DNA of 64,000 nt from an uncultured Planctomycetota bacterium. GTDB lineage: Bacteria; Planctomycetota; Planctomycetia; Isosphaerales; Isosphaeraceae. Shown here in pieces: positions 28,927 through 48,950 of this stretch (within the stretch, counting starts at the first letter, position 1; each line of letters begins with the position of its first letter). Below the pieces are notes generated by a model, which was not told where the DNA came from, did no database searches, and worked only from the letters and a program-made list of their open reading frames with translations. The position numbers were made by a program, and so were the translations under genes. The DNA lies in NCBI GenBank assembly GCA_963845755.1, contig CAWJTV010000034.1, positions 448,001 through 512,000 on the forward strand, in the 5' to 3' direction.

Positions 28927-30616
28927 ATGTTGCGCACAACTGTTGGATGGATGCTCTTGACCCTGGTGATTCCTGGTTCGCTGGCCTCCGGCCAGGAGCG
29001 TCGGCGCGATCCTTATGACGTCGTGATTCGTGGAGGCAAGATCGTCAACGGCACCGGGAATCCGTGGTTCGAGGGCGACGTCGCGGTCCGGGGCGATCGG
29101 ATTGCGGCGATCGGTCACCTGGGGGCCGACGTCGAGGCTCGCCGGGTCATCGATGCCAGGGGCCTTATCGTGGCTCCAGGCTTCATCGACATGCATTCGC
29201 ACTCCGATCGGGTGCTGCTCATCGACGGCGACGCCAACAGCAAGATCCGCGACGGCGTGACCACCGAGATTCTGGGCGAGGATACGTCGGCCGGGCCGGT
29301 CAAGGGAAAACTCAAGACTCGCGGCGACACTCCGCCGAGCTGGACGACCCTGGGAGGTTACTTCGATGCCCTCGAGTCGCGGGGGATTTCCGTAAATGTG
29401 GCGAGCTATACCGGGCTCGGGACCCTGCTGGGCTGCGTGCTGGGTGACTCCCTGGGCCGGCCTGACGCCGGACAGCTCGAATCCATGAAGGGACTTCTGG
29501 ACGAAGCCATGCGCGACGGGGCGATCGGCCTCTCCACCATGCTCGCCAGCCCGCGCGAGCTCGCCGTGACCACCGACGATATCGTTGCCCTCGCCGCGGT
29601 GGTCAAGCGGCACGGCGGCCTCTATTCGTCCCACATCCGCAACGAGGGAACGGAGGTCTTCGCGGCCGACAAGGAGGCGATCGAGATCGGCCGGCGCGCG
29701 GGGATTCCGGTTGACATCATCCATATCAAAATCGCCGACCAGACGCTCTGGCACCGCATGAACGAGATCATCGCGCTGATCGACGCCGCGCGACGTGAGG
29801 GTGTCAACGTTCAGGCAAATGTCTATCCCTACACGCGCGGCAATAATGATCTGGTCAGCATCATTCCCCCGTGGGCCCATGAGGGGGGGACCGGCCAACT
29901 GATCGCGCGGTTGAAGGATCCCCAGGTCCGCGACCGGCTCAAGGGCGAGATCCGCGCCGGTCTGCCCGGCTGGTACAACCATTACACGGCCGTGGGTGGC
30001 GACTGGGGGCGCATGCTCATCAGCGCCCGATTGTCCGCGGGAAACCGATCGTTCCAGGGCCAGACGATGGATCGGATTATCGCGGCGAAAACCGCCGGCA
30101 AGAGTCCGACGCCGGATCCCCTTGATGTCCTCTTCGACTTCCTGATCGAGGAGAATGGTTCGATCGGAACGATCTACGCCGCACCATACCGAGGAGGACA
30201 TGAACCTGGTGTTGAGTCAACCGTGGTGCTCGATCGGCTCCGATGGGTCCGCCCTGGCCATCGAGGGCCCGCTCCGGGCCGGTCACCCCCACCCGCGAAG
30301 CTTCGGGACGTTCGCGCGAGTGCTGGGCGAATATGTGAGGCAGCGCCGGCTCTTGAGGCTGGAGGACGCTGTCCGGAAAATGACGTCCCTGAACGCGGCG
30401 AAGGCCGGCCTCATCGATCGCGGCATCCTGCGACCGGGATTATCGGCTGACGTGACCCTCTTCGACCCGGCCACAGTCATCGACCATGCCACCTACCTCG
30501 AGCCGTTCCAGTACAGCACGGGAATCCGCTTCGTTCTGGTCAATGGCCAGGTCGTCCTCGACGACCGCCATCACACGGGGGCACATCCGGGTCGCGCCTT
30601 GCGCCATGGTCGCTGA
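28927..30616 (+). CDS. Exported N-acyl-D-amino-acid deacylase family amidohydrolase (frameshift ~30180)
   Basis: Signal peptide; APGFIDMHSHSD, SHIRNE, HIK, YPY; C-terminal IGSDG, HPRSFGTF, EDAVRKMTS, ADVTLFD in ORF 30155-30616. Confidence 0.85.
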
Positions 30617-30770
30617 AGACCAATCGGCTCGATGCCTCAGGAGACAAGCATGGTAAACGGACAGCACGATGAGCCTCACGGAATCCGTATGAGGAAGTTG
30701 CGTCTGTCGTTGAACCAACACGCCTTGTGGCCTTGTCCGTCCCTGGTCACATCCGGATTGGAAGAAAAAA

Positions 30771-30842
30771 AACCGGCCAACGATTAGGTTTCAGACGAGG
30801 ACCTCTCCCCTCCTCGTCCAAAACCCGATCGACTGGCCGGTT
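30771..30842. other. Long imperfect hairpin
   Basis: AACCGGCCA/TGGCCGGTT, CGAT/ATCG, GGTTT/AAACC and GACGAGGA/TCCTCGTC nested stems. Confidence 0.6.
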
Positions 30843-30896
30843 AGAAGCAGGCCATCAGCCCTTTACAACACGTGGACCGACGGCCATTGGCTTGAG

Positions 30897-30940
30897 AAAG
30901 GGCGAGCGGGGGGTCGTGCGAGGCGTCCCGCTCGCCCTTT
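30897..30940. terminator. Putative intrinsic terminator, possibly bidirectional
   Basis: AAAGGGCGAGCGGG...CCCGCTCGCCCTTT 14-bp perfect stem; short U-tract on either strand. Confidence 0.55.
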
Positions 30941-31306
30941 GGCGGGGAGCCGAACCATGGTTATGGGACGGCGACGCCTTTGGGGTGGATGCTTAAAAGT
31001 TATCTGTCTGGGTTTTCATCACCCGTCGTCTTTGTCAGACTCTTGTGTTTGAGTTACGAGAGGGTAGAAAGCAAACACAATGCCAACTCGCCTTCACACG
31101 GCAAGAACGTGGGGCCAAGGCGTCTGAGAATGCCCCATTAGTTTGTCGTATGTCCCGATTTTCTCAAGTCACTACGTCGTTCGGCCGGATCTTGAGATGT
31201 GGGAGTTCCTCATGCGCCGGCATCGAGCATGGCGGTCGGGGCTCGTATATTTTGTGGGCACTTTGGCCCAAGAAGAATGCATCTCCCTGGGATATCGAGA
31301 ATCCAG

Positions 31307-32572
31307 ATGAGCGGAGAGGAAGAAACCGGGAAGTTGGTGCTGGAAAATCTGGCTCAGTCTGTCATGGCCTGGGTTGGTCAGCAAAAAGAAAGAGCATTGA
31401 CCCGTTGGTTGCGTCGTGAGCTGGATTCGGATGGGGTTCCGGTCCGACTGAGGACCGCCGAGTGGCCGGAGTGTCTCAAGTTGCTTGTCGAGGTAAAACG
31501 CCGGGGAGGAGAGTGGCCGGAGAGTTCTGAGTCGCAAGTCCGCGGGCTGATCCTGGCGACGTTGCGGTTTGCCCGGCCTGATGGCGGGCTGTCGATGGGT
31601 TTCGACGAGTCACTCCAGGATTCCTCCCTGGCCCAGATGGCGACGGACTGGGCGACTTGCTACCGAGGCACGGGGATCGCTCGGGTGCTTCAATGGTGGT
31701 TCGATCCGGGTCGGAAGGAGCATGCTCCCCCTCCGCTGCCGGCCTGGTCCGCCCCGGATCGTGTCCTGGCCATCCTCCGTCCCGATTGGCTGGCCGCGGG
31801 GGATTTCCTGGCGATCGACCACCGAGATCCCCGAAGTCCTTGCCGGTTCGAGCTTTTCGGAGCGGGTCGTTCGTGGCTGGGACCGCAATGGAGCGTTGCT
31901 GGCGTGGACGCTCCGCGCTCGCGACCAAAGCCGCGGGTCTGGATCACCGGGTCCGCGGCCGACCTCGCCGAGTGGTCCTATCGCGCGGGGCCATTGCGGA
32001 TGACTCAATCCGCGTTGCTGGTACGCGGCCGGCGTCTGGCCTTGCTGTCGGTCCTTCTCGAGGGCCGCGATCTCCTGAATGTGAACGGCTGGACGGTGCA
32101 ACTCGCGCTCCCGCCGTCGATCGCGGCCGCGCCGGTGGAGGGCTGCCGCGCCCTGGCCCTCGCCGAATCCCACGGTCGCGGTTCCGCGCAGGTACTGCCG
32201 ATCGGCCTGCCGTGCGCGGATTATCCCACCGACCGCGGGCGGTTTCAGGCCGAGTGGCCGGACCTGACCTTGAACCATTCGGCCGCGGGCCGGCGCTGCT
32301 GGCTCCCCCTCCTGGTCTCCTGGGACCCCGCGCGACATCGTAAGAGCTTGCGCTGGCGCATCTTGACCGTCTCCGAACGGTCGCGAGCCGTTGGCCGGGA
32401 CCGGGCCTTCGCCGCACGCGTGAGCTGGGGCCGCGACGAGTCCTATGTCATCTATCGCAGCCTGGGAACTCCGGCGCCTCGTGCCTTCCTGGGACACCAG
32501 ACCAAGTCCCGATTCCTCTTCGGACAATTCACGACCGATGGCGAGGTCAAACCGATTGTGACCGTCGATTGA
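31307..32572 (+). CDS. Hypothetical protein
   Basis: 421-aa ORF with globular, Trp-rich composition (WLPLLVSWD, WRILTVSE, YRSL..RAFLGHQ); no family recognised. Confidence 0.65.
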   Translation: MSGEEETGKLVLENLAQSVMAWVGQQKERALTRWLRRELDSDGVPVRLRTAEWPECLKLLVEVKRRGGEWPESSESQVRGLILATLRFARPDGGLSMGFDESLQDSSLAQMATDWATCYRGTGIARVLQWWFDPGRKEHAPPPLPAWSAPDRVLAILRPDWLAAGDFLAIDHRDPRSPCRFELFGAGRSWLGPQWSVAGVDAPRSRPKPRVWITGSAADLAEWSYRAGPLRMTQSALLVRGRRLALLSVLLEGRDLLNVNGWTVQLALPPSIAAAPVEGCRALALAESHGRGSAQVLPIGLPCADYPTDRGRFQAEWPDLTLNHSAAGRRCWLPLLVSWDPARHRKSLRWRILTVSERSRAVGRDRAFAARVSWGRDESYVIYRSLGTPAPRAFLGHQTKSRFLFGQFTTDGEVKPIVTVD

Positions 32573-32575
32573 GTC

Positions 32576-32812
32576 TCATGCATCCCACTGACTACCCTGC
32601 TCCTTCCTGATCTCCCCGATAACCCGGGCCCTTGCGATGACTGACAGGGACCAAGTGATGTAGATCAGGGTGACACCCACGGTTAGATACCCGGAATGTT
32701 GATGGGCCTTCTGTAACGACGCCTGGCCCTGGACGATCAACTGCCCCATGACAAGCTGCGCGATCACCAAGATAGCAGCCAGTACGCCCGTGATCATGAG
32801 AAGCGGTTTCAT
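32576..32812 (-). CDS. Small two-TM membrane protein
   Basis: 78 aa, two hydrophobic helices separated by KAHQHSG; GAAGGA upstream. Confidence 0.6.
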   Translation of the reverse strand: MKPLLMITGVLAAILVIAQLVMGQLIVQGQASLQKAHQHSGYLTVGVTLIYITWSLSVIARARVIGEIRKEQGSQWDA

Positions 32813-32841
32813 TGTGGGACCGAATCCTTCAGAATAGAAAA

Positions 32842-32899
32842 GTCGGTCAGGCTTTCCGGCCTGACGCTCCAAACCGTCAGGCCGGAAAGCCTGACCTAC
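32842..32899. repeat. REP-like palindrome, copy 1
   Basis: GTCGGTCAGGCTTTCCGGCCTGAC..GTCAGGCCGGAAAGCCTGACCTAC; near-identical to 42951-43009. Confidence 0.85.
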
Positions 32900-32911
32900 G
32901 TACGGGCTATC

Positions 32912-33613
32912 ATGAACGAAGACCGAATCCGTGAGAACCTGGGGATGATCCGGAACCGAATCGCCGCGGCGGCGCGGCGGTCCGGCCGTGCCGCCGATGC
33001 CGTCCGCCTGATCGCCGTGACCAAACGCAGCCCATTGGAATGGATCCGGCCGCTTGTCGTCGCCGGGGCACGCGACCTGGGAGAGAACTATCCCCAGGAA
33101 CTTTGGCGGAAGGCGGAAGCGCTCGCGGACCTCGGGGATTCCGTCCGCTGGCACTTGATTGGACACTTGCAATCCAACAAGGTCAAGAAAACTCTCCCCC
33201 TGGTCGTCATGATCCACGCGGTGGATTCGCTGAAGCTGCTGCAAACCCTCAATGATTCGGCGGTGACCCTCCCCACACCGCCCTCGGTCTGCTTGCAGGT
33301 CAACACCTCGGGCGAGACGAGCAAGCATGGTTGGACTGCCGCCCAGGTACTCGACGACAGTGAATCGATTGCGGCGTGCCGTGCGATCCCGATTGTCGGC
33401 TTGATGACAATGGCCGCGCTGGGGACGACGCCGGAGACGGCGCGCGGGTCGTTCGTCGCGCTCCGTGAGCTGCGCGACGGCCTGTGCCATCGGACAGGCA
33501 TGGCACTGGACGAGCTTTCGATGGGGATGTCGAATGATTTCGAGACGGCCATCGAAGAGGGGGCCACGCTGGTCCGGATCGGCTCGGCTTTGTTCGAGGG
33601 GGTTGAACCGTGA
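32912..33613 (+). CDS. yggS: YggS family PLP homeostasis protein
   Basis: LIAVTK, GENYPQE, WHLIGHLQSNK, LQVNTSGE.SKHG, GLMTMA, LSMGMSNDF..AIEEGATLVRIGS. Confidence 0.95.
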   Translation: MNEDRIRENLGMIRNRIAAAARRSGRAADAVRLIAVTKRSPLEWIRPLVVAGARDLGENYPQELWRKAEALADLGDSVRWHLIGHLQSNKVKKTLPLVVMIHAVDSLKLLQTLNDSAVTLPTPPSVCLQVNTSGETSKHGWTAAQVLDDSESIAACRAIPIVGLMTMAALGTTPETARGSFVALRELRDGLCHRTGMALDELSMGMSNDFETAIEEGATLVRIGSALFEGVEP

Positions 33614-33903
33614 TCGCGATCGTTCCGCACGCCGAGGGCGCGATCGTCTCCGTCGTGGCACAACCGGGCTCGAAGCGCAATGCCGTCCTCGGCGAGCGCG
33701 CCGGGGCGTTCCGGATCGCGGTGACGGCCCCACCGGATAAAGGGAAGGCCAACGCGGCCATTCAGACGATGCTCGCGGAGAACCTGGGGTGCAAGACCGC
33801 GCAGGTGTCGCTGATCTCCGGTGCGTCCTCGCGGCAGAAGCGGTTCCTCATCCGAGGAGTAGACATCGAGGAGCTGCGGAAACGCATCTTAGAGCGTTTA
33901 TGA
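33610..33903 (+). CDS. DUF167 (YggU-like) protein
   Basis: QPGSKRN, VTAPPDKGKAN, SGASSRQK; GTGA overlap with yggS. Confidence 0.9.
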   Translation: MIAIVPHAEGAIVSVVAQPGSKRNAVLGERAGAFRIAVTAPPDKGKANAAIQTMLAENLGCKTAQVSLISGASSRQKRFLIRGVDIEELRKRILERL

Positions 33904-33979
33904 GAAGGTGTTGTCGGGTGCTCGGTGAGCACCAATAGTTCTCGGGAAAAGGATTCGGTGCTCGCAGAGCACGCTACCA

Positions 33980-35312
33980 ATGACCATAGAATACCCGGAA
34001 GCGATGCCGATCGAACTTTGGACGGGTGCGCCGCCTTGCGCGGTCGTCCGGGTGCCAGGGTCGAAGAGCCTGACCAACCGGGCGCTGATCGTCGCCGCTA
34101 TGGCGGACGGGCCGAGTGTCCTGACCGGCACTCTCGATTGCGAGGATACGCGTGTGATGGTCGAGGCGATCCGGAGCCTGGGCATCGACGTTGAGCACGA
34201 GGCAACCTCGGCGTCGATCCGGCTGAGCGGTTGCGGTGGCAATATTCCTGCTCGGACGGCCGCATTGGAAGTGGCCAACTCGGGCACGAGCCTCCGCTTC
34301 CTGACGGCGATGCTGGCGACCGGGCAGGGGACCTTCCACCTCGACGGGACGCCCCGGATGCGTCAGCGGCCCGTCGCCGACCTCCTCACGGCGCTGCAAC
34401 GGTCTGGGCGCCGATGCGCGATCGGACCTCGGGACCGGCTGCCCGCCGTTGACCATCCGGGCCAGCGGACTCGACGGTGGCTATGCCTTCGTAAAGGGCG
34501 ACGTCTCCAGCCAGTTCCTGAGCGGCCTGCTCATGGCGCTGCCATATTCCCGGGATGTGACCACGGTCGAGGTCCGGGGCACGCTGGTCTCGCAACCCTA
34601 CGTGACCATGACGTTGGCGGTGATGGAGTCCTTCGGTGTCCGCGTGGACAACCGCAAGTTCCGCCGCTTCGACGTATCGCCCGCGCACTACCATGGCCGG
34701 AACTATGCGATCGAGCCGGACGCCTCGGCCGCCAGCTATTTCTTCGCCATGGCGGCGATCACCGGAGGCACCATCACCGTCGAGGGGCTTGGAGGCACGA
34801 GCCTTCAGGGTGACCTGGCGTTCGTGGACATCCTCGAATACATGGGCTGCTCCGTGAACCGGGACGCGGAGCGGACAACCGTGACCGGCGGCCAGCTGCG
34901 CGCCGTCGACGTTGACATGAACGCCCTGTCGGACACCGTGATGACCCTGGCCGTGATCGCCCTGTTCGCCGGCGGCGTCTCGCGCATCCGAAATGTAGCC
35001 CACATCCGTCACAAGGAAAGCGATCGGATCGCCGCTCTGGCGACGGAACTCCGCAAGTTGGGCGCCGAGGTCGACGAACTCCCCGACGGCCTGGTCATCA
35101 ACCCTCCCTCGAACGACCGCCTCCACGGGGCACCGATCGCCACCTACGACGATCACCGCATGGCGATGTCGTTCGCCATCGCCGGCCTGCGCATTCCCGG
35201 CGTCACGATCCTCGACCCCGGCTGCGTTGCCAAGACTTACCCGGGGTTCTGGGAGGACGTCGAACTTGTCCGGGTCGATGGCGGCAGATGCTCCGAAGCG
35301 CACAACTGTTAA
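33980..35312 (+). CDS. aroA: 3-phosphoshikimate 1-carboxyvinyltransferase (frameshift ~34397)
   Basis: PGSKSLTNR, NSGTSLRF, RP, SSQFLS, PYVTMT, EPDASAASYF, RHKESDRI, TYDDHRMAMSF, KTYP. Confidence 0.95.
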
Positions 35313-36110: not shown

Positions 36111-37187
36111 TCAACCGGGGCGTTTCGTCGGTCCCTCAGAAGGAACTTTCGGAACGTCCTTGAAACGCGGCGATTCGAAGGTCTTGATTCCTTCGGGGGT
36201 CAAGCGACGGAAGATCGCCGCGTGCGCCGGGGGTCTCGTCGACCAGCCTGAGCCCCCGGTCGGGACCGAGAAGATAGGCGGTCGTCTCGAGGGCGTCGGC
36301 GGTCGCCCCGTCGGGGGCGACGACGGTGACAGCCGCGCGGTCCTCGTGACCCAGACCCGTCGCCGGATTGATGATGTGCGAATAGCGATGTCCATCGATG
36401 ATGACGAACCGTTCGGCGTCGCCGGCGGTCGAAACCGCGGCGTTCTTCAGCAGCAGGGTAGGTGGATGGTCACCGAGCTTGGGGTCCAGCGGCGCGATGG
36501 CGATCCTCCAGCCCTCGGCGTCGGGGGGAGGGTCGCCAACGACGATGTCGCCGGCGCCGCCGACCAGCGCCCGCGTGATCCCCTTCGACCTGAGCACGTC
36601 GAGCCCGGCCTGGGCGGCGTAGCCCTTGGCGATCCCGCCGACGTCGAGCTTCATTCCCGGCTTCAAGAGCTGGACGGTCCGTGCCGCCGGGTCGAGCACC
36701 ATCTTGTCCGAGCCGACGAGCTGTCGGGCCTCGGCGATCCGCGCCGGGTCCGGCAACTTCCGGTCGCGGCGCGCGCGCGCCAGAGCCGGCCGACCGGTGC
36801 GATCGTGACATCGAACGCCCCACCCGATCGCTCGTACATCCGCTTCGATCGCGCGAGCACGTCGAAGAGGTCGGCTTCGACCTTCGCCGGCGGCCCGCCG
36901 GCCGATCGCGACAACTTCGACAGCGCGCTCTCCGGATCGTAATCGCTCAACACGGCATTCAGCGCCTCGATCCGATCGAAGGCCGCTCGGGAGGCGCGTC
37001 TGGCGGTCGCGTCGTCCGTCGAGTATAAAACAAGATGAAATGCGCTGGCCATGTGCGTCTCCTCAAACTCGAAACGCGACAGGCGCCGGCCAGATTCACG
37101 AACCTGCCCGGCCGTTCTCCCGACCTCACCGCCGGGACTTGACGGGAACGATTGAACCCACAGCCACGCGATCAAAGTCGCACCCAT
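36111..37187 (-). CDS. apbE: FAD:protein FMN transferase (frameshifts ~36775, ~36222)
   Basis: HMASAF, LSDYDPESALS, GAFDVTIAP, MKLDVGGIAKGYA, GDI, VSTAGD.ERF, YSHIINPATG, ADAL.TA. Confidence 0.9.
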
Positions 37188-37266
37188 GAAGGCCTCCGGG
37201 GCGTGAACTCGGCCTCGGGAATCCGTACTCGTGCCAGGAAATCCGGTCACTTGGAGCATATCAAAC

Positions 37267-38342
37267 GTGAGCCGTTTCTCGAATACCGTCGGGCTGGCCG
37301 TCGTCGCCTCGGCGCTCTGGCTCGGGTCGCCACGGATGGCGACTTCCGCGCCCAGGAGCCGGCGGCGGAGACCGCCAGTTCAATGAAGCCTTATGTGGAG
37401 ACTATCCCCGGGACCGCCGTCAAGTTCGAGATGGTCCCGATTCCCGGCGGGACCTTCACCATGGGCAGCCCTCCGGAAGAGGCGAAGCTCGAGAAGGACG
37501 ACGACCCGCTCATCAAGGTCGCGCCGAGTCCGCAGCACCCGGTCCAGATCGCCCCTTTCTGGATGGGCAAGTACGAAGTCACCTGGGACGAGTACGACCA
37601 GTTCGCGTTCTCCTTGGACTTGAAGAAGAAATCGCGAGAGAAAGTCGATCTCACCCAGCAGCCCGAGACCGAGAAGAAGGCCGACGCGGTGACCCGGCCG
37701 ACCCCTCCGTACGCCGACATGACGTTCGGCTTCGGCCGGGATGGTCAACCCGCCATCTGTATGACTCACCACGCGGCGATGGAATACTGCCGGTGGCTCT
37801 CGGCCAAGACCGGGAAAACCTACCGTCTGCCGACGGAAGCCGAATGGGAATATGCCTGCCGCGCCGGGACGAAAACCGCCTATTCCTGGGGTGATGACCC
37901 GGAGAAGCTCGACGCGTACGCCTGGGACGTCAACAATGCCGAGAAGCCCATGCCCGTCGGCAAGAAGAAGCCCAATCCGTGGGGCCTCTATGACATTCAC
38001 GGGAACGTCTCGGAGTGGTGCCTGGATCATTACTCGGCCGACGCCTACAAGACCTATCCTACCGGGAAGCCGACCCTGGGCCCGGTCAGCCTGCCGGATG
38101 CCAAGGAGTATCCCTACATCGTCCGGGGCGGGTCGTGGGACGACGACCCCGAGAAACTCCGTAGCGCGGCCCGCCGGGGTTCGAACAAGGAATGGAGCAC
38201 CCAGGACCCGCAACGTCCCCAGAGCATCTGGTGGCACACCGACGCCACATTCGCGGGGTTCCGGATTATCCGCCCGCTGAACGAGCAAGCCAATCTCAAG
38301 GGCCTCAAGTCGCCGGTCGTCAAGGGCAGGGGCACCCGATGA
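37267..38342 (+). CDS. Secreted formylglycine-generating-enzyme (SUMF1) fold protein (frameshift ~37360)
   Basis: MVPIPGGTFTMGS, YEVT, YRLPTEAEWEYACRAG, NPWGLYDIHGNVSEW, RGGSW, GFR; GTG start at 37267 with signal peptide in another frame. Confidence 0.85.
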
Positions 38343-38488
38343 TCCGTCGGGTCCCGGCCCGTTCGAGTCGAGTCGCGTTCCGCCAAGTCGCCTTGAATCG
38401 ATAGGACGAAGAGTGAGCGTGTCCGAGGGGTGAGGGCCGAGTGGCCCTCCGAGTTGATGACATCCCAACCAGCACCAGGAGTCGAACG

Positions 38489-39775
38489 ATGACCGAGCCA
38501 ACCTCTTCGAAGAACTTCTCCCCTTCGCGGCGTGATTTCCTGAAGACTTCGACCGCCGCCGCGGTCGGCCTGGGCGCGATGGGCCATGTCCACGCCGCCG
38601 GCAGCGATGTCATCAAAGTGGGGCTGATCGGCTGCGGCGGCCGTGGCCGCGGCGCCGCGGACAACATCTGCGAGGCGGCCGGTAGCAGCTACAATATCAA
38701 GCTCCACGCTCTGGGCGACGTGTTTCCCGACCACCTCAAGGATTGCCGTGAGTTCCTCCGCAACAACGCCAATTCCAAGGAGCGGATGGACATCTCCGAC
38801 GATCGCTGCTTCGTCGGGTTCGATGCTTACCAGAAAGTGATCGAGTGCTGCGACCTCGTGATGCTGGCCACCCCTCCCGGCTTCCGGCCGCTGCACATCG
38901 AGGCGACCATCAAGGCCGGCAAGCAGCTCTTCACCGAGAAGCCGGTGGCCGTCGATGGCACGGGCATCCGCAAGGTCCTGGACGCTTATGAGGAAGCCAA
39001 GAAGAAGGGCCTGTCGGTCGTCGCCGGCACCCAGCGCCGCCATCAGGCGGGCTACCTTGAGAGCCTGAAGCGGATTCACGACGGAGTGCTGGGCGACCTG
39101 GTCACCGGCCGCGTCTACTGGAACCAGGGCGACATCTGGGTCCATCCCCGCAAGGAAGGCTGGAGCGACACCGAGTATCAGATTCGCAACTGGTACCACT
39201 TCCTCTGGCTCTGCGGCGATCACATCGTCGAACAGCATGTGCACAATCTCGACGTGGCGATCTGGGCACTGGGTGCCCATCCGGTGAGTGCCGTCGGGAT
39301 GGGCGGCCGCCAGGTGCACAACGAGCCGGCCTATGGACAGAGTTACGACCACTTCGCCGTCGATTACGAGTTCCCCGACGGCAAGCACGTCCTGAGCATG
39401 GCCCGGCAGATCCAGGGCTGCGCCGACAATGTCTCGGAGACGATCATCGGCACCAACGGCGAGTTTCACAGCGGTGGCTATCGCTTCACCGGACGATACA
39501 AGGATCGCATCCGCATCCGCGAGGTGAATCCCTACGTCCAGGAACACATCGACCTGCTCGAGAGCATTACGGCTCATAAGCCGATCAACGAGCTGAAGCA
39601 GGTGGCCGAGAGCACGCTCACGGCGATCATGGGTCGCGATTCGGCGTACACGGGCAAGAAGCTCTCCTGGGACCAGGCGCTCAACTCGACGCTCAACACG
39701 TTCCCCAAGTCACCGCTGGCGTGGGGCCCGATGAAGGAAGGCCCGGTGCCCCGTCCGGGCATGGAGCTGGGCTGA
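38489..39775 (+). CDS. Tat-exported Gfo/Idh/MocA oxidoreductase
   Basis: SRRDFLK; VGLIGCGGRG, ATPPGFRP.H, EKP, GTQRRH, GDHIVEQHVHNLD. Confidence 0.9.
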   Translation: MTEPTSSKNFSPSRRDFLKTSTAAAVGLGAMGHVHAAGSDVIKVGLIGCGGRGRGAADNICEAAGSSYNIKLHALGDVFPDHLKDCREFLRNNANSKERMDISDDRCFVGFDAYQKVIECCDLVMLATPPGFRPLHIEATIKAGKQLFTEKPVAVDGTGIRKVLDAYEEAKKKGLSVVAGTQRRHQAGYLESLKRIHDGVLGDLVTGRVYWNQGDIWVHPRKEGWSDTEYQIRNWYHFLWLCGDHIVEQHVHNLDVAIWALGAHPVSAVGMGGRQVHNEPAYGQSYDHFAVDYEFPDGKHVLSMARQIQGCADNVSETIIGTNGEFHSGGYRFTGRYKDRIRIREVNPYVQEHIDLLESITAHKPINELKQVAESTLTAIMGRDSAYTGKKLSWDQALNSTLNTFPKSPLAWGPMKEGPVPRPGMELG

Positions 39776-39877
39776 GTTATCGGATCCGGCTCCGTCCGAC
39801 GACCCGAGATCCTCGGCGGACGGAGCCCCTTCTCCGATCGCGCAACGTCTCCCCCGCAAACCCACGAGGACATCCCG

Positions 39878-40767
39878 ATGAGGAAGCTGCTGGCTTACGC
39901 GCTCTCGACACTCGTGACGGCCTGGTTGATCGGCACCGTCGCACCCGCGCAGGCCGCCGACACGGCCAAGGTTGTCCTGGTCGCCGGCCGGCCCAGCCAC
40001 GGCCCGGGCGATCATGAGTTCAATGCCGGTTGCAAACTACTGGCCAAGTGCCTGGTGCAGGTCCCTGGCATCGAGCCCGTGGTCGTGACGGGAGGCTGGC
40101 CCAAGGATGAATCGGTATTCGAGGGCGCCGGACGCTCGTGTTCTTCATGGACGGCGGCGGCGGACACCCCATGATTCAGGGGAACCATCTGGAGACGCTC
40201 CAGAAGCTGATGGATAAGGGCGTGGGCCTGGTCTGTCTGCACTACGCGGTCGAGGTCCCCAAGGGCGGGCCGGGCGACAAGTTCCTGGACTGGATCGGCG
40301 GCTATTATGAGACCGGCTTCTCGACCAACCCGCACTGGACGGCGGAGATCCAGAGCCTGCCGACGCATGCGATCACCCGGGGTGTCAAGCCGTTCGCCGT
40401 CAAGGACGAGTGGTACTTCAACATCCGATTTCGCCCAGGCATGAAAGGCGTCGTGCCACTCGTCGTGGCCAAGCCCGATGACAAGACGCGCCAGGGAGTC
40501 TCCTCATCCCCGCGCGGGCCGTACCAGCACATCGTTGAGGCCAAGGGGCGCGACGAAGTGCTCGCCTGGGCGGTGGAACGCCCGGACGGCGGCCGTGGCT
40601 TCGGCTTCACGGGCGCCCACGCCCATAAGAATTGGGGCGATCCCAGTTTTCGCAAGCTGGTCCTCAACGCGATCCTCTGGACCGCCAAGCTCGACGTGCC
40701 TGCCGAAGGGGTTAACTCGTCGGTCACCGATGAGGAGTTGAAGCAGAACCTCGATCCCAAGAGATGA
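39878..40767 (+). CDS. Secreted ThuA-domain protein (frameshift ~40130)
   Basis: Signal peptide; VVLVAG..SH.PG.HE, GLVCLHYA, HAITRGV..F...DEWY, WAVER..GGRGF..TG.H. Confidence 0.8.
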
Positions 40768-46436: not shown

Positions 46437-47868
46437 TCATTTCTGTTTGTCGGGCGCCGTGTCCTTCGTGACGGGATGCGTCGGCTTGCGACGGGCGTCG
46501 GGCTCCAGCCCGGGAATGCGCGAGATGGAGCTGTTGAATCGCTGATCGCCGGTCGCGGTCGTTGTCTCGGCCCGGATGTACTTCGTCAGCGGAGCTTCCT
46601 GTGGCTCGACGATCTGATCCTGGCGCACGAGCTGGATCCCTTCGACGACGACCTTCTGGCCCGATTCGAGCCCCGATTCCAGCACTCGCAGTCCCTCATA
46701 GACATCGACCGGCTTGACCTTGACGACCTGCACCTTGTTCGCGGCGTCGACGACATAGACGCGCGAGCCATCCTGCCCCTCGATCACCGACTGCTCCGGA
46801 ACAACCACGGCATCCACATACTGGCCGACGATCATCCCGGCGCGGACATACTCGCCCGGCAAGAGGGACCCGTCGGGATTCGGGACCGCCGCACGCATCA
46901 GGAACGTCAACGTGGTAGTGTCCACGACGTTGTCGATAAAGATGGCCCTGCCGAAATGGGGGTGCTGGCGCTCGCCCTCGACAGTCAGCTCGACCTTCAA
47001 GCCGGGGCCGAGGCTGCGCCGTCGCCACCGGGAGATACCGAGCGGGCGGGCGAAAGTCCAATCCCATCGGATCGAGCTGCTGGATCGTGACCAGCTCGGT
47101 CGCCTGGCCATCGCCGACCAGGTTGCCGACCTTGATCTTCAGCTCGCCGATGCGCCCATCGATGGGTGCCATCATCCGGCAATAGCCCAGATTGAGGTGG
47201 GCATCGTCGACGCCGGCCTTGGCTCGGGCGAAGTCGGACTTGGCGGTCTCGATATTGATCCGATAATCGGCCTCCTCCTGCTCCAGGTTGGCGCGATCGG
47301 ACTCGACTTGAGCCGCGGTCTTCTTGAGCTGAGCCTCGGCCTTATCGTAGTCGTCCTGAGACGCCGCCTTGCGCGAAAGCAGGCTGCGTTCGCGCCGTTC
47401 CTCGACGCGGTCGAGCAATAGCTGGGCCTGGTCCAGATCGAGTTGGGCCTTGGCGACCTGGGGCCTTCGCGAGGCCTCGGCTTTCTTCAAAGCCGCCCCG
47501 GCCGCCTCGAGCTGCGCCTCGGCCTGCGCGAGCTGGAGCTTGTAAGGCTGCTCGTCGATCACCAGCAAGAGTTGAGCTTTCTTGACATTGCCGCCTTCCT
47601 CGAAATGCTTCTCCGTGAGGAATCCCTTGACTCGCGCCCGTATCGTCACGTCCTGGAGGGCTCGGGTCGTGCCGATCGGGTTGACGACGATCGGCAGAGT
47701 CCGCTTCTCCGATAGGGTGACCGTAACCTTGGGCGGCGGCGGTTTATGCTCCGGTTCCTGAGTCACGCGACAGCCGGCGAGCCCCAGCGCGATTGTCGCC
47801 GCCGAGCCCGCTATCAGCGGGAACATTCTGGATACGAACGACCGAGCCGGTGCTGGCGATAGCGTCAT
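46437..47868 (-). CDS. RND periplasmic adaptor (MFP) lipoprotein (frameshift ~47020)
   Basis: Lipobox LAGC; IRARVKGFL, NLGYC..APIDG..G, GNLV, FIDN.VD..T, NPDGSLLPGEY, VPEQSV. Confidence 0.9.
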
Positions 47869-47960
47869 GTTCGTTGTCCGTCGTCCTTCTTCCGTTCCGA
47901 GTCCGCCTCGGGGCAGGGCGCGATCCCTGGGCCAGGCGGAAGCCATCATACTGAGGCTCA

Positions 47961-48950
47961 TCAGGGAACGCCATGGACGTCGGACGGCTTCTTACGAGCC
48001 ACATCCCAGCCGGGAAGGGTGACCGGCTCCTGGCCCGGCGGCGGTGGCTCGACCAGCTTGCCGTAGAGCTCGGGGCGACGCGCCCGGAGATAGCGCCGGC
48101 CCGACGAATGCTCCAGTTTTTCGGGTGTCAGCAGGGCCACGACGACATCGTCATCGAGCGCCCGGCTCTCGGCGAGGACCTCGCCGAACGGGTCGAGGAT
48201 CATGGCGAGGCCGGGCTTGACCGTGTCGTCGTCGAGGCCGATCGGGTTGCTGAAGACGGCATAGACGCCGTTCTCCCAGGCGCACGCCGGGAGCCACCTC
48301 ATTAGCCAGCCACGACCCTTCGGGCCTTGAAACTCGAGTTGCAGCCGGACCGGGTCGCGTTCTCGGTTGTCCCACAAGGTCCGGCCCACGATGCCTCGCC
48401 CCGGCATGATCGAGGGAAGGCATCCGGTCACATGCGGCATGAAGATGACCTCGGCGCCCATCATCGCCGTGATGCGGACGTTCTCCGGCAAGTTGTTGTC
48501 GTAGCAGATCAGGAAGCCGGCCTTGATGCCCCGGATCTCGACGACGTTGTACGAATCCCCGGGAGTCAAGGCGGGATTGATGAACGTGTGCAGTTTGCGA
48601 TACTTGGTGATGAATCCCTCCGGACCGACCGTCACATAGCAATTATGGAGCGTCCCCGACGGATCCGACTCGACGAGCCCGGCCATCACCACAGCATCAT
48701 ACCTCCGCGCAATCGCTTCCAATGCACGGACCGACAGACCGCCCGGGACCGGCTCCGCCACCGCGGAAAGCCCGGAGCGGCTCAAGTTCTGGAGATAAGT
48801 ATAACCCGAAATCGCACATTCGTGGAAGCTGACGATCTCGGCACCTTGCTCCACGGCGCGGCGAGTCAGTGCGTCGATCCGGGAGAGATTATATTCTTTA
48901 TCGTTATTGCGATGCTCGAACTGGGCGGTGGCCACTCGGATGTCTCGCAC
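47961..48950 (-). CDS. Nitrilase / carbon-nitrogen hydrolase family protein
   Basis: Catalytic E-K-C in SFHEC, KYRKLH and LICYDN; ILDPFGE. Confidence 0.9.
   Translation of the reverse strand: MRDIRVATAQFEHRNNDKEYNLSRIDALTRRAVEQGAEIVSFHECAISGYTYLQNLSRSGLSAVAEPVPGGLSVRALEAIARRYDAVVMAGLVESDPSGTLHNCYVTVGPEGFITKYRKLHTFINPALTPGDSYNVVEIRGIKAGFLICYDNNLPENVRITAMMGAEVIFMPHVTGCLPSIMPGRGIVGRTLWDNRERDPVRLQLEFQGPKGRGWLMRWLPACAWENGVYAVFSNPIGLDDDTVKPGLAMILDPFGEVLAESRALDDDVVVALLTPEKLEHSSGRRYLRARRPELYGKLVEPPPPGQEPVTLPGWDVARKKPSDVHGVP

Follow-up and report, generated by a model that had tools for sequence, protein, structure and literature searches.

We analyzed a divergent four-gene cluster within a 64,000-nucleotide stretch of DNA (the window) from contig CAWJTV010000034.1 of an uncultured planctomycete. 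The source genome has a size of 14.3 Mb and is 88% complete, and the nearest relatives of the genes are found in Isosphaeraceae planctomycetes. The cluster starts with apbE on the reverse strand, which encodes a flavin adenine dinucleotide (FAD):protein flavin mononucleotide (FMN) transferase. It is followed, on the forward strand, by genes for a protein with the fold of formylglycine-generating enzymes (FGEs), for a Gfo/Idh/MocA oxidoreductase with a signal for twin-arginine translocation (Tat), and for a ThuA-like protein (Table 1). The central subject is the FGE-fold protein, a candidate for a new type of ApbE substrate.

Table 1. Features of the apbE/FGE-fold locus in the window
Feature	Position	Strand	Remark
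apbE, FAD:protein FMN transferase	36111..37187	-	PF02424; tblastn with intact relative L002
Divergent intergenic region, 79 bp	37188..37266	.	
Secreted Cys-less FGE-fold protein	37267..38342	+	PF03781; proposed covalent-FMN carrier
DAVTRPT	37683..37703	+	Proposed ApbE site; predicted modified Thr 37701-37703
RGGSWDDD	38124..38147	+	
QDPQxPxSxW[WY]xTDA	38202..38246	+	Subfamily signature
Tat-signal Gfo/Idh/MocA NAD(P) oxidoreductase	38489..39775	+	Uncharacterized clade
Secreted ThuA-like protein	39878..40767	+	

Both start codons of the divergent pair were set from intact relatives (L002 and P0002), which places the apbE start at 37187 on the reverse strand and a GTG start of the FGE-fold gene at 37267 on the forward strand. 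An earlier sequence-only reading of the window had described the four-gene layout with a divergent spacing of about 80 bp, an FGE-fold protein that reads RGGSWDDD in place of the catalytic Cys pair and carries an insert at 37683-37703, and the lack of a canonical FMN-binding-domain gene in the vicinity. All these observations were confirmed. The spacing is 79 bp, the insert is exactly DAVTRPT, directly preceded by the residues KA, and PF04205 (FMN_bind) has no match in the whole 88%-complete genome. No sigma70-like site was found in the 79-bp region, and promoter and terminator scans of the locus yielded results near chance level. Clustering of the neighboring genes in close loci, defined as the best 80 of at least 587 relatives from a genome scan, did not reveal a conserved fifth gene.

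Pfam assigned the products to FGE-sulfatase (E 9e-47), ThuA (E 5e-15), and, in two pieces, ApbE (E 1e-45 and 6e-18), as apbE reads through three frames. Frameshifts are located near 36777 and 36225 in apbE, near 37350 in the signal peptide of the FGE-fold protein, and near 40125 in thuA. The aroA gene and several further open reading frames of the window are likewise frameshifted; amidohydrolase-like, aroA, and resistance-nodulation-division adaptor genes are split between frames at 28927-35312 and 46437-47961, indicating a high indel error rate of the assembly. Because apbE is a single open reading frame in 69 of the 73 related loci possessing it, the frameshifts of the window are most likely indels that arose in sequencing or assembly.

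The FGE-fold protein and its conserved motif

The FGE fold was found with Pfam (PF03781), in the AlphaFold model (predicted local distance difference test 91, predicted template modeling score 0.92), and with Foldseek, which yielded PvdO as the best match (E 2e-17, 29% identity), followed by TvpA and FGEs. The protein scores under every NCBIfam cut-off. By eye, a signal-peptide-like N-terminus is present in P0002 as well as in the window protein, which is thus an exported protein with a cognate apbE in the same cluster. RGGSWDDD presumably occupies the place of the Cys-bearing active-site loop of FGEs. The loss of the Cys pair by itself is unremarkable because PvdO and PorK also lack it according to alignments and PMC12421860. 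In summary, the window protein is neither an FGE nor an FMN_bind protein.

For the analysis of conservation, the subfamily was defined by its C-terminal signature alone (residues 262-298), which does not overlap with the motif. From 550 FGE-like sequences, 314 distinct members remained after dropping duplicates and sequences cut before the motif, and 312 of them lack the Cys pair after RGGS. The signature stretch QDPQxPxSxW[WY]xTDA is possibly a wall of a flavin pocket. In the model, DAVTRPT forms a lower-confidence loop immediately after helix 95-101. It agrees with the ApbE consensus Dxx[S/T]GA[S/T] at five of seven positions, with Arg-Pro in place of Gly-Ala, and hence does not match the strict consensus. 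All 314 members end the motif with Thr (280) or Ser (34), and 311 begin it with Asp. Variation is larger at position 5 (Arg 258, Gly 20, Ser 9, and others) than at position 6 (Pro 299, Ala 9, Ser 6). At the homologous column, six members have the strict motif Dxx[ST]GA[ST], two are near-canonical (DAVAGAT and EAITGAT), and 12 are G-P intermediates, compared with a background of 4 canonical motifs per 232,177 residues of non-member proteins. The site is thus homologous to a canonical ApbE motif, and the Ser/Thr acceptor is invariant. The motif is missing in 184 of 195 non-members; the 11 exceptions have low C-terminal signature scores and seem to be members that are truncated or carry frameshifts. 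Members of about 720 amino acids were also observed (P0191, P0202, P0217, P0223, and P0272-P0286), several with FG-GAP-like N-terminal repeats, and their acceptor is mostly Ser (DAVTRPS, DAVTHPS).

A quick maximum-likelihood tree was calculated from 144 rows with the motif excluded and most close Isosphaeraceae and most generic rows left out. All 107 members fell into one branch, together with three rows that had missed the label (Shimodaira-Hasegawa-like approximate likelihood ratio 97). The GAT form occurred in two separate parts of this branch, and closely related NapC fusions switch between GAT and GPT. We also considered that the loop might be a pseudo-substrate, as T-x-P-x-R of the motif region resembles the sulfatase signature CxPxR. 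This reading was dropped because 203 of the 314 members have Pro directly behind the Thr, and 10 have Arg there.

Variation at the same positions is also found in DUF2271, an ApbE substrate family for which flavinylation of this Thr was proven by experiment (PMC8238504). In the 10 loci with a readable site, of 15 fetched, the variants were GAT, GPT, APS, RAT, RAS, QAT, and SAT, e.g., DGISGAT, DAVSGAT, DGVTGPT, DGISAPS, and ISRAT, and the ApbE-DUF2271 fusion of the genome under study has RPT (TVARPT). Gly-to-Ala and Ala-to-Val changes in the motif were reported to lower flavinylation to about 50%, not to abolish it (PMC12052999). The proposal of the sequence-only reading that DAVTRPT is a variant ApbE target thus gains strong comparative support from the canonical motif at the homologous column, the invariant acceptor, the DUF2271 substitutions, an ApbE fusion, and the genetic linkage described below. 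Attachment of FMN by ApbE to the Thr that ends DAVTRPT is, in our view, quite likely.

Linkage to apbE, dehydrogenase genes, and hemes

An apbE gene is present in 73 of the 80 close loci. Five of the other seven stop at a contig edge, and the remaining two (L048 and L053) have no apbE within 6 kb. In addition, an even draw of 150 other genomes of the phylum was inspected, 43 of which carry the subfamily. All 43 carriers contain apbE somewhere in the genome, compared with 121 of the 150 genomes overall, and 31 have it within about 5 kb (25 judged from fetched regions and 6 from coordinates). No P-value is given because kin are not independent. This genome-wide co-occurrence applies to Planctomycetota, as the Bacteroidota members come from contigs; the one Parabacteroides distasonis replicon contains no apbE. 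The orientation of apbE relative to the carrier gene varies from divergent to co-directional (L132, L134, and L136), and in P0187 the two are fused.

Linkage was also compared between motif forms in 99 well-flanked loci, which had been chosen by a pattern requiring Ser/Thr, so that conservation was taken from the 314-member set instead. An adjacent apbE was found at 72 of 89 well-flanked loci with x-P forms versus 0 of 4 with G-A forms (0 of 8 overall), a G-A sample that is tiny and lineage-bound. The contrast is suggestive of an odd site that needs its own transferase.

The window ApbE passes the PF02424 family assignment by its Pfam score, and it retains GGIAKGY, the catalytic His (YSHII), and the catalytic Asp (ADALET); the gene is intact in most relatives. 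The genome has three apbE genes, and the other two each have their own partner. One is an ApbE-DUF2271 fusion (L086, G000:C5:225791-228065), which lies beside a PepSY-TM gene and contains the TVARPT site mentioned above instead of xxSGAT. The other one (L087, G000:C29:52750-56591) is clustered with a membrane gene of the DoxX/DoxD-like type and a further Gfo gene with a Tat signal. The C-terminal half of this Gfo protein includes a Ser/Thr-rich insert with STAGPT (ASGAPT in L262), at which the dehydrogenase itself might be flavinylated. Gfo proteins of this type occur in 9 of the 150 other genomes, and listed coordinates place apbE about 2.4 kb away in three of them.

The Gfo/Idh/MocA gene is the most constant neighbor, present in 71 of the 80 close loci, and a Gfo of the same clade occurs in 33 of 40 fetched regions of phylum-sample carriers. 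In the window Gfo, PF01408 scores above its cut-off, and the twin-arginine signal SRRDFLK is slightly below the cut-off of Pfam (22.0 versus 22.7 bits) and above that of TIGR01409 (24 versus 16.7 bits). Neither a solved structure nor a named protein is close to the clade (best PDB match E 1e-12), which is far under all NCBIfam enzyme cut-offs. With NF058561, the BT2158 family, the window Gfo reaches 23.3 bits versus a cut-off of 750, and we conclude from the comparison that the locus is not a BT2158-type cluster. ThuA is found in 44 of the 80 close loci and is largely confined to close relatives; it is an accessory component. A link of Gfo and ThuA to 3-keto-glycoside catabolism, raised in the sequence-only reading, is in view of these values suggestive only. 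Further neighbors of members include TIM barrels, a 3-keto-disaccharide hydrolase (L136), a pair of glucose-methanol-choline (GMC) dehydrogenases (L131), and SusD (L127), and as judged from gene content they point to sugar or glycoside oxidation.

Some loci had other contents. In L149 and L153, tandem motif-bearing FGE-fold genes directly follow a gene for myo-inositol-1-phosphate synthase, and neither apbE nor Gfo is present in the locus. In L197, a motif-bearing FGE-fold gene (DAITGPT) adjoins a gene for a GH109-type NAD-dependent glycosidase. At G000:C41:387323-391003, a same-clade Gfo paralogue lies between genes that by eye are DUF1080-like and TIM-barrel-like, with no carrier gene nearby.

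A search among 50% representatives was crowded by multi-repeat generic FGE proteins, and 24 subfamily matches were hand-picked for the domain scan. Planctomycete fusions of one or two cytochrome c domains with the FGE domain were found (P0194, P0201, P0224, P0233, and P0254), and further cytochrome c fusions were detected among the longer relatives and in L135 and L215. All seven scanned proteins with four CxxCH motifs were NapC/NirT-FGE fusions. NapC-FGE clusters in the Atlas have 198, 214, and 76 members, with Bacteroidota as the commonest phylum. In P. distasonis, a NapC-FGE gene with the motif DAISGPT occurs together with a Gfo and a TIM barrel gene; a second SGAT-like stretch in the inter-domain linker of this protein (L252:11866-13443) may be due to chance. 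Unfused members also have heme neighbors, namely cytochrome b561 and c3 upstream (L202), a cytochrome b561 with six CxxCH motifs (L210), seven-CxxCH proteins (L203-L205 and L207), a b562-like protein in seven loci, and c7/c3-like proteins in six. The ApbE-FGE fusion is represented by a single protein, P0187, in a one-member cluster, and no further example was present among 26 candidates scored in the search for longer relatives.

Proposed electron transfer and alternatives

These observations can be combined into a model, to which we assign a probability of roughly 0.6: the FGE-fold protein would be an exported, ApbE-flavinylated carrier that takes electrons from the Tat Gfo enzyme and passes them towards hemes, and then to quinone or an oxidase. 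First, the divergently encoded ApbE would attach FMN to the last Thr of DAVTRPT. Second, the Tat-exported Gfo/Idh/MocA enzyme with bound NAD(P) (nicotinamide adenine dinucleotide (phosphate)) would oxidize a periplasmic sugar, glycoside, or cyclitol, an activity that is established for the family. Third, the electrons of the bound NAD(P)H would be transferred to the FMN on the carrier loop. Fourth, the FMN would deliver single electrons to hemes, as the fusions suggest; in Bacteroidota these would be in the fused membrane NapC/NirT domain reaching the quinone pool, and in some planctomycetes and verrucomicrobia in the fused c-type cytochrome. In the genome under study, the electron exit would be a separate protein. 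Re-oxidation of the dehydrogenase cofactor by the flavinylated protein, as postulated in the sequence-only reading, is indirectly supported by the cytochrome and NapC fusions and by Gfo as the most constant neighbor.

Several observations weigh against this model. Isosphaeraceae loci have no conserved cytochrome or quinone partner alongside, and no electron exit is encoded at the window locus. An Arg-Pro ApbE site has no tested example in the literature covered, and the DUF2271 variants are sequence observations. The triad Ser of ApbE (Ser241 in Vibrio cholerae; the triad residues are named in PMC12052999) is replaced by Ala (STAGD) in the window protein, as it is in 26 of the 80 linked ApbEs that could be classified, with the position inferred from the [ST][TS]xG motif ahead of the His. 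The only ApbE fusion, being a single sequence, could be an artefact, and the 314-member set is redundant and consists mostly of related, non-independent Isosphaeraceae proteins. The genome contains four Gfo paralogues of the clade versus one carrier, and 21 of the 99 well-flanked motif loci lack a Gfo of the window clade. The expectation that the motif would be restricted to apbE-linked homologs failed for adjacency, as 25 of these 99 loci have no apbE within 6 kb, but all 43 other carrier genomes of the phylum sample contain an apbE. Lastly, the characterized Tat Gfo glycoside dehydrogenases recycle their NAD partner-free via 3-keto-sugars (bioRxiv 2024.03.25.586180; PMC8121099).

Of the alternatives, an unlikely one is that the protein is flavinylated but itself an enzyme, with the FGE groove and the FMN oxidizing or reducing a small molecule, for example the product of the Gfo enzyme or a keto-sugar shuttle. 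Electrons may then flow in the reducing direction, from quinol via heme and FMN to a substrate, without direct contact to the Gfo cofactor. NapC/NirT proteins classically pass quinol electrons to periplasmic reductases, which fits such a direction, whereas electron transfer from quinol to NAD(P) is uphill, which counts against this alternative. An enzymatic function is also in line with PvdO, the closest relative of solved structure, which lacks the Cys pair, has the FGE fold, and bears the name of a dehydrogenase, with the neighborhood of other NAD enzymes at some members without a nearby same-clade Gfo (a GH109 enzyme at L197 and inositol-phosphate synthase at L149 and L153), and with the re-oxidation of the bound NAD of Gfo enzymes by small carbonyl compounds that is described in bioRxiv 2024.03.25.586180. 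However, no catalytic residue set was identified, and an acceptor role would agree with the soluble c-type cytochrome fusions and with the tight linkage to a single clade of dehydrogenases.

It is improbable that flavinylation is limited to family members with a canonical motif while the Arg-Pro site in the lineage of the window is vestigial or structural, with the linked ApbE being weak or serving another protein. The two off-consensus motif positions of seven, the Ala at the triad Ser, the lack of a nearby encoded electron exit, and the frameshifted apbE in the assembly would all be compatible with such a loss. However, the terminal Ser/Thr is kept in all members although neighboring positions vary, adjacent apbE is more frequent with x-P than with G-A forms, in keeping with a transferase dedicated to the odd site, the genome yielded no FMN_bind match, and both other ApbEs have partners of their own. 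A non-redox role, either as a scaffold or chaperone like PorK or as a sulfatase-maturing FGE with apbE as a bystander, is very hard to believe, because the universal annotation as "formylglycine-generating enzyme", the reuse of the FGE fold as a docking hub in PorK (PMC12421860), and a sulfatase near members L133 and L200 stand against the missing Cys pair, the canonical ApbE motif at the homologous column, the heme fusions, and an apbE that stays adjacent in changing orientations (divergent, co-directional, and fused).

Taken together, the feature is conserved and most likely serves as an ApbE-dependent electron relay outside the cytosol; under the flavinylated-carrier model, it would represent a redox module and an ApbE substrate with a new fold. 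A bolder generalization, which we rate at somewhat below an even chance, is that FGE-fold flavoproteins from several phyla are the missing electron-acceptor subunit of Tat NAD(P) dehydrogenases, so that electrons would flow from sugar to NAD, covalent FMN, heme, and quinone outside the cytoplasm, and that a co-evolved ApbE reads x-Pro-Thr.

Significance and relation to known systems

If the model is true, the ApbE substrates would gain a fold not seen among them before and a broader recognition site. Genomes with orphan apbE genes (4%) are an acknowledged gap (PMC8238504), and many "orphan" apbE genes and "FGE-sulfatase" annotations could be explained, as motif searches for GA[S/T] miss x-Pro-Thr. 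A sugar oxidoreductase with a bound cofactor would become a respiratory dehydrogenase that operates entirely outside the cytoplasm, and many "formylglycine-generating enzyme" genes of Planctomycetota, Verrucomicrobiota, and Bacteroidota, among them that of the gut commensal P. distasonis, would have to be re-annotated as parts of respiratory sugar oxidation. The model would offer an explanation for the cofactor recycling of periplasmic NAD-bound Gfo/Idh/MocA enzymes and make it directly testable.

No description of this system was found in the literature, the coverage of which mostly excludes subscription journals. No paper was found that joins ApbE flavinylation with formylglycine enzymes, or FGE-sulfatase with a NapC oxidoreductase, or that deals with the NapC or SUMF1 proteins of P. 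distasonis. The main texts of PMC8238504 and PMC11334425 do not mention FGE, sulfatase, PF03781, or GFO, though their supplementary gene-cluster tables could list PF03781, and that of PMC12052999 mentions neither FGE nor sulfatase.

Four types of known systems can be compared with the locus. PvdO, PorK/GldK, and the true FGE (SUMF1) share the fold with the window protein, which differs from them by two subfamily-specific inserts, the motif loop and the QDPQ...WW stretch, and has no Cys pair. The membrane tetraheme quinol dehydrogenases NapC/NirT/NrfH share with the relatives the N-terminal four-CxxCH domain, which is fused to them most commonly in Bacteroidota. This domain is missing from the window protein, and in the relatives it is fused to the putative flavin domain, not paired with a nitrate or nitrite reductase.

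The periplasmic 3-keto-glycoside pathways BT2156-BT2159/AL1-4, which are of the NAD-dependent Gfo type, and LacABC/ThuAB have in common with the window a Tat-exported Gfo enzyme and bound NAD, and the TIM barrels, 3-keto-disaccharide hydrolase, ThuA-like proteins, and GMC dehydrogenase in the neighborhood of the relatives recall these pathways. The BT/AL clusters have no electron-accepting subunit described in bioRxiv 2024.03.25.586180, and their NAD is presumed to be recycled by way of 3-ketoglucose. The same preprint, by Nasseri, allows for the NAD of Tat Gfo enzymes being re-oxidized by "specialized proteins, such as cytochromes".

The known ApbE-flavinylated carriers comprise the FMN_bind domains of NqrC, RnfG, and NosR, DUF2271, DUF3570, and variants of Flavodoxin_4 and FMN_red (PMC8238504, PMC11334425, PMC12052999). 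Like the window subfamily, they combine an exported Dxx[ST]xx[ST] protein with an otherwise orphan apbE and a linkage to membrane or heme electron carriers. In contrast to them, the window subfamily has an FGE fold, a site that is mostly x-Pro instead of Gly-Ala, and an NAD(P) dehydrogenase as its partner.

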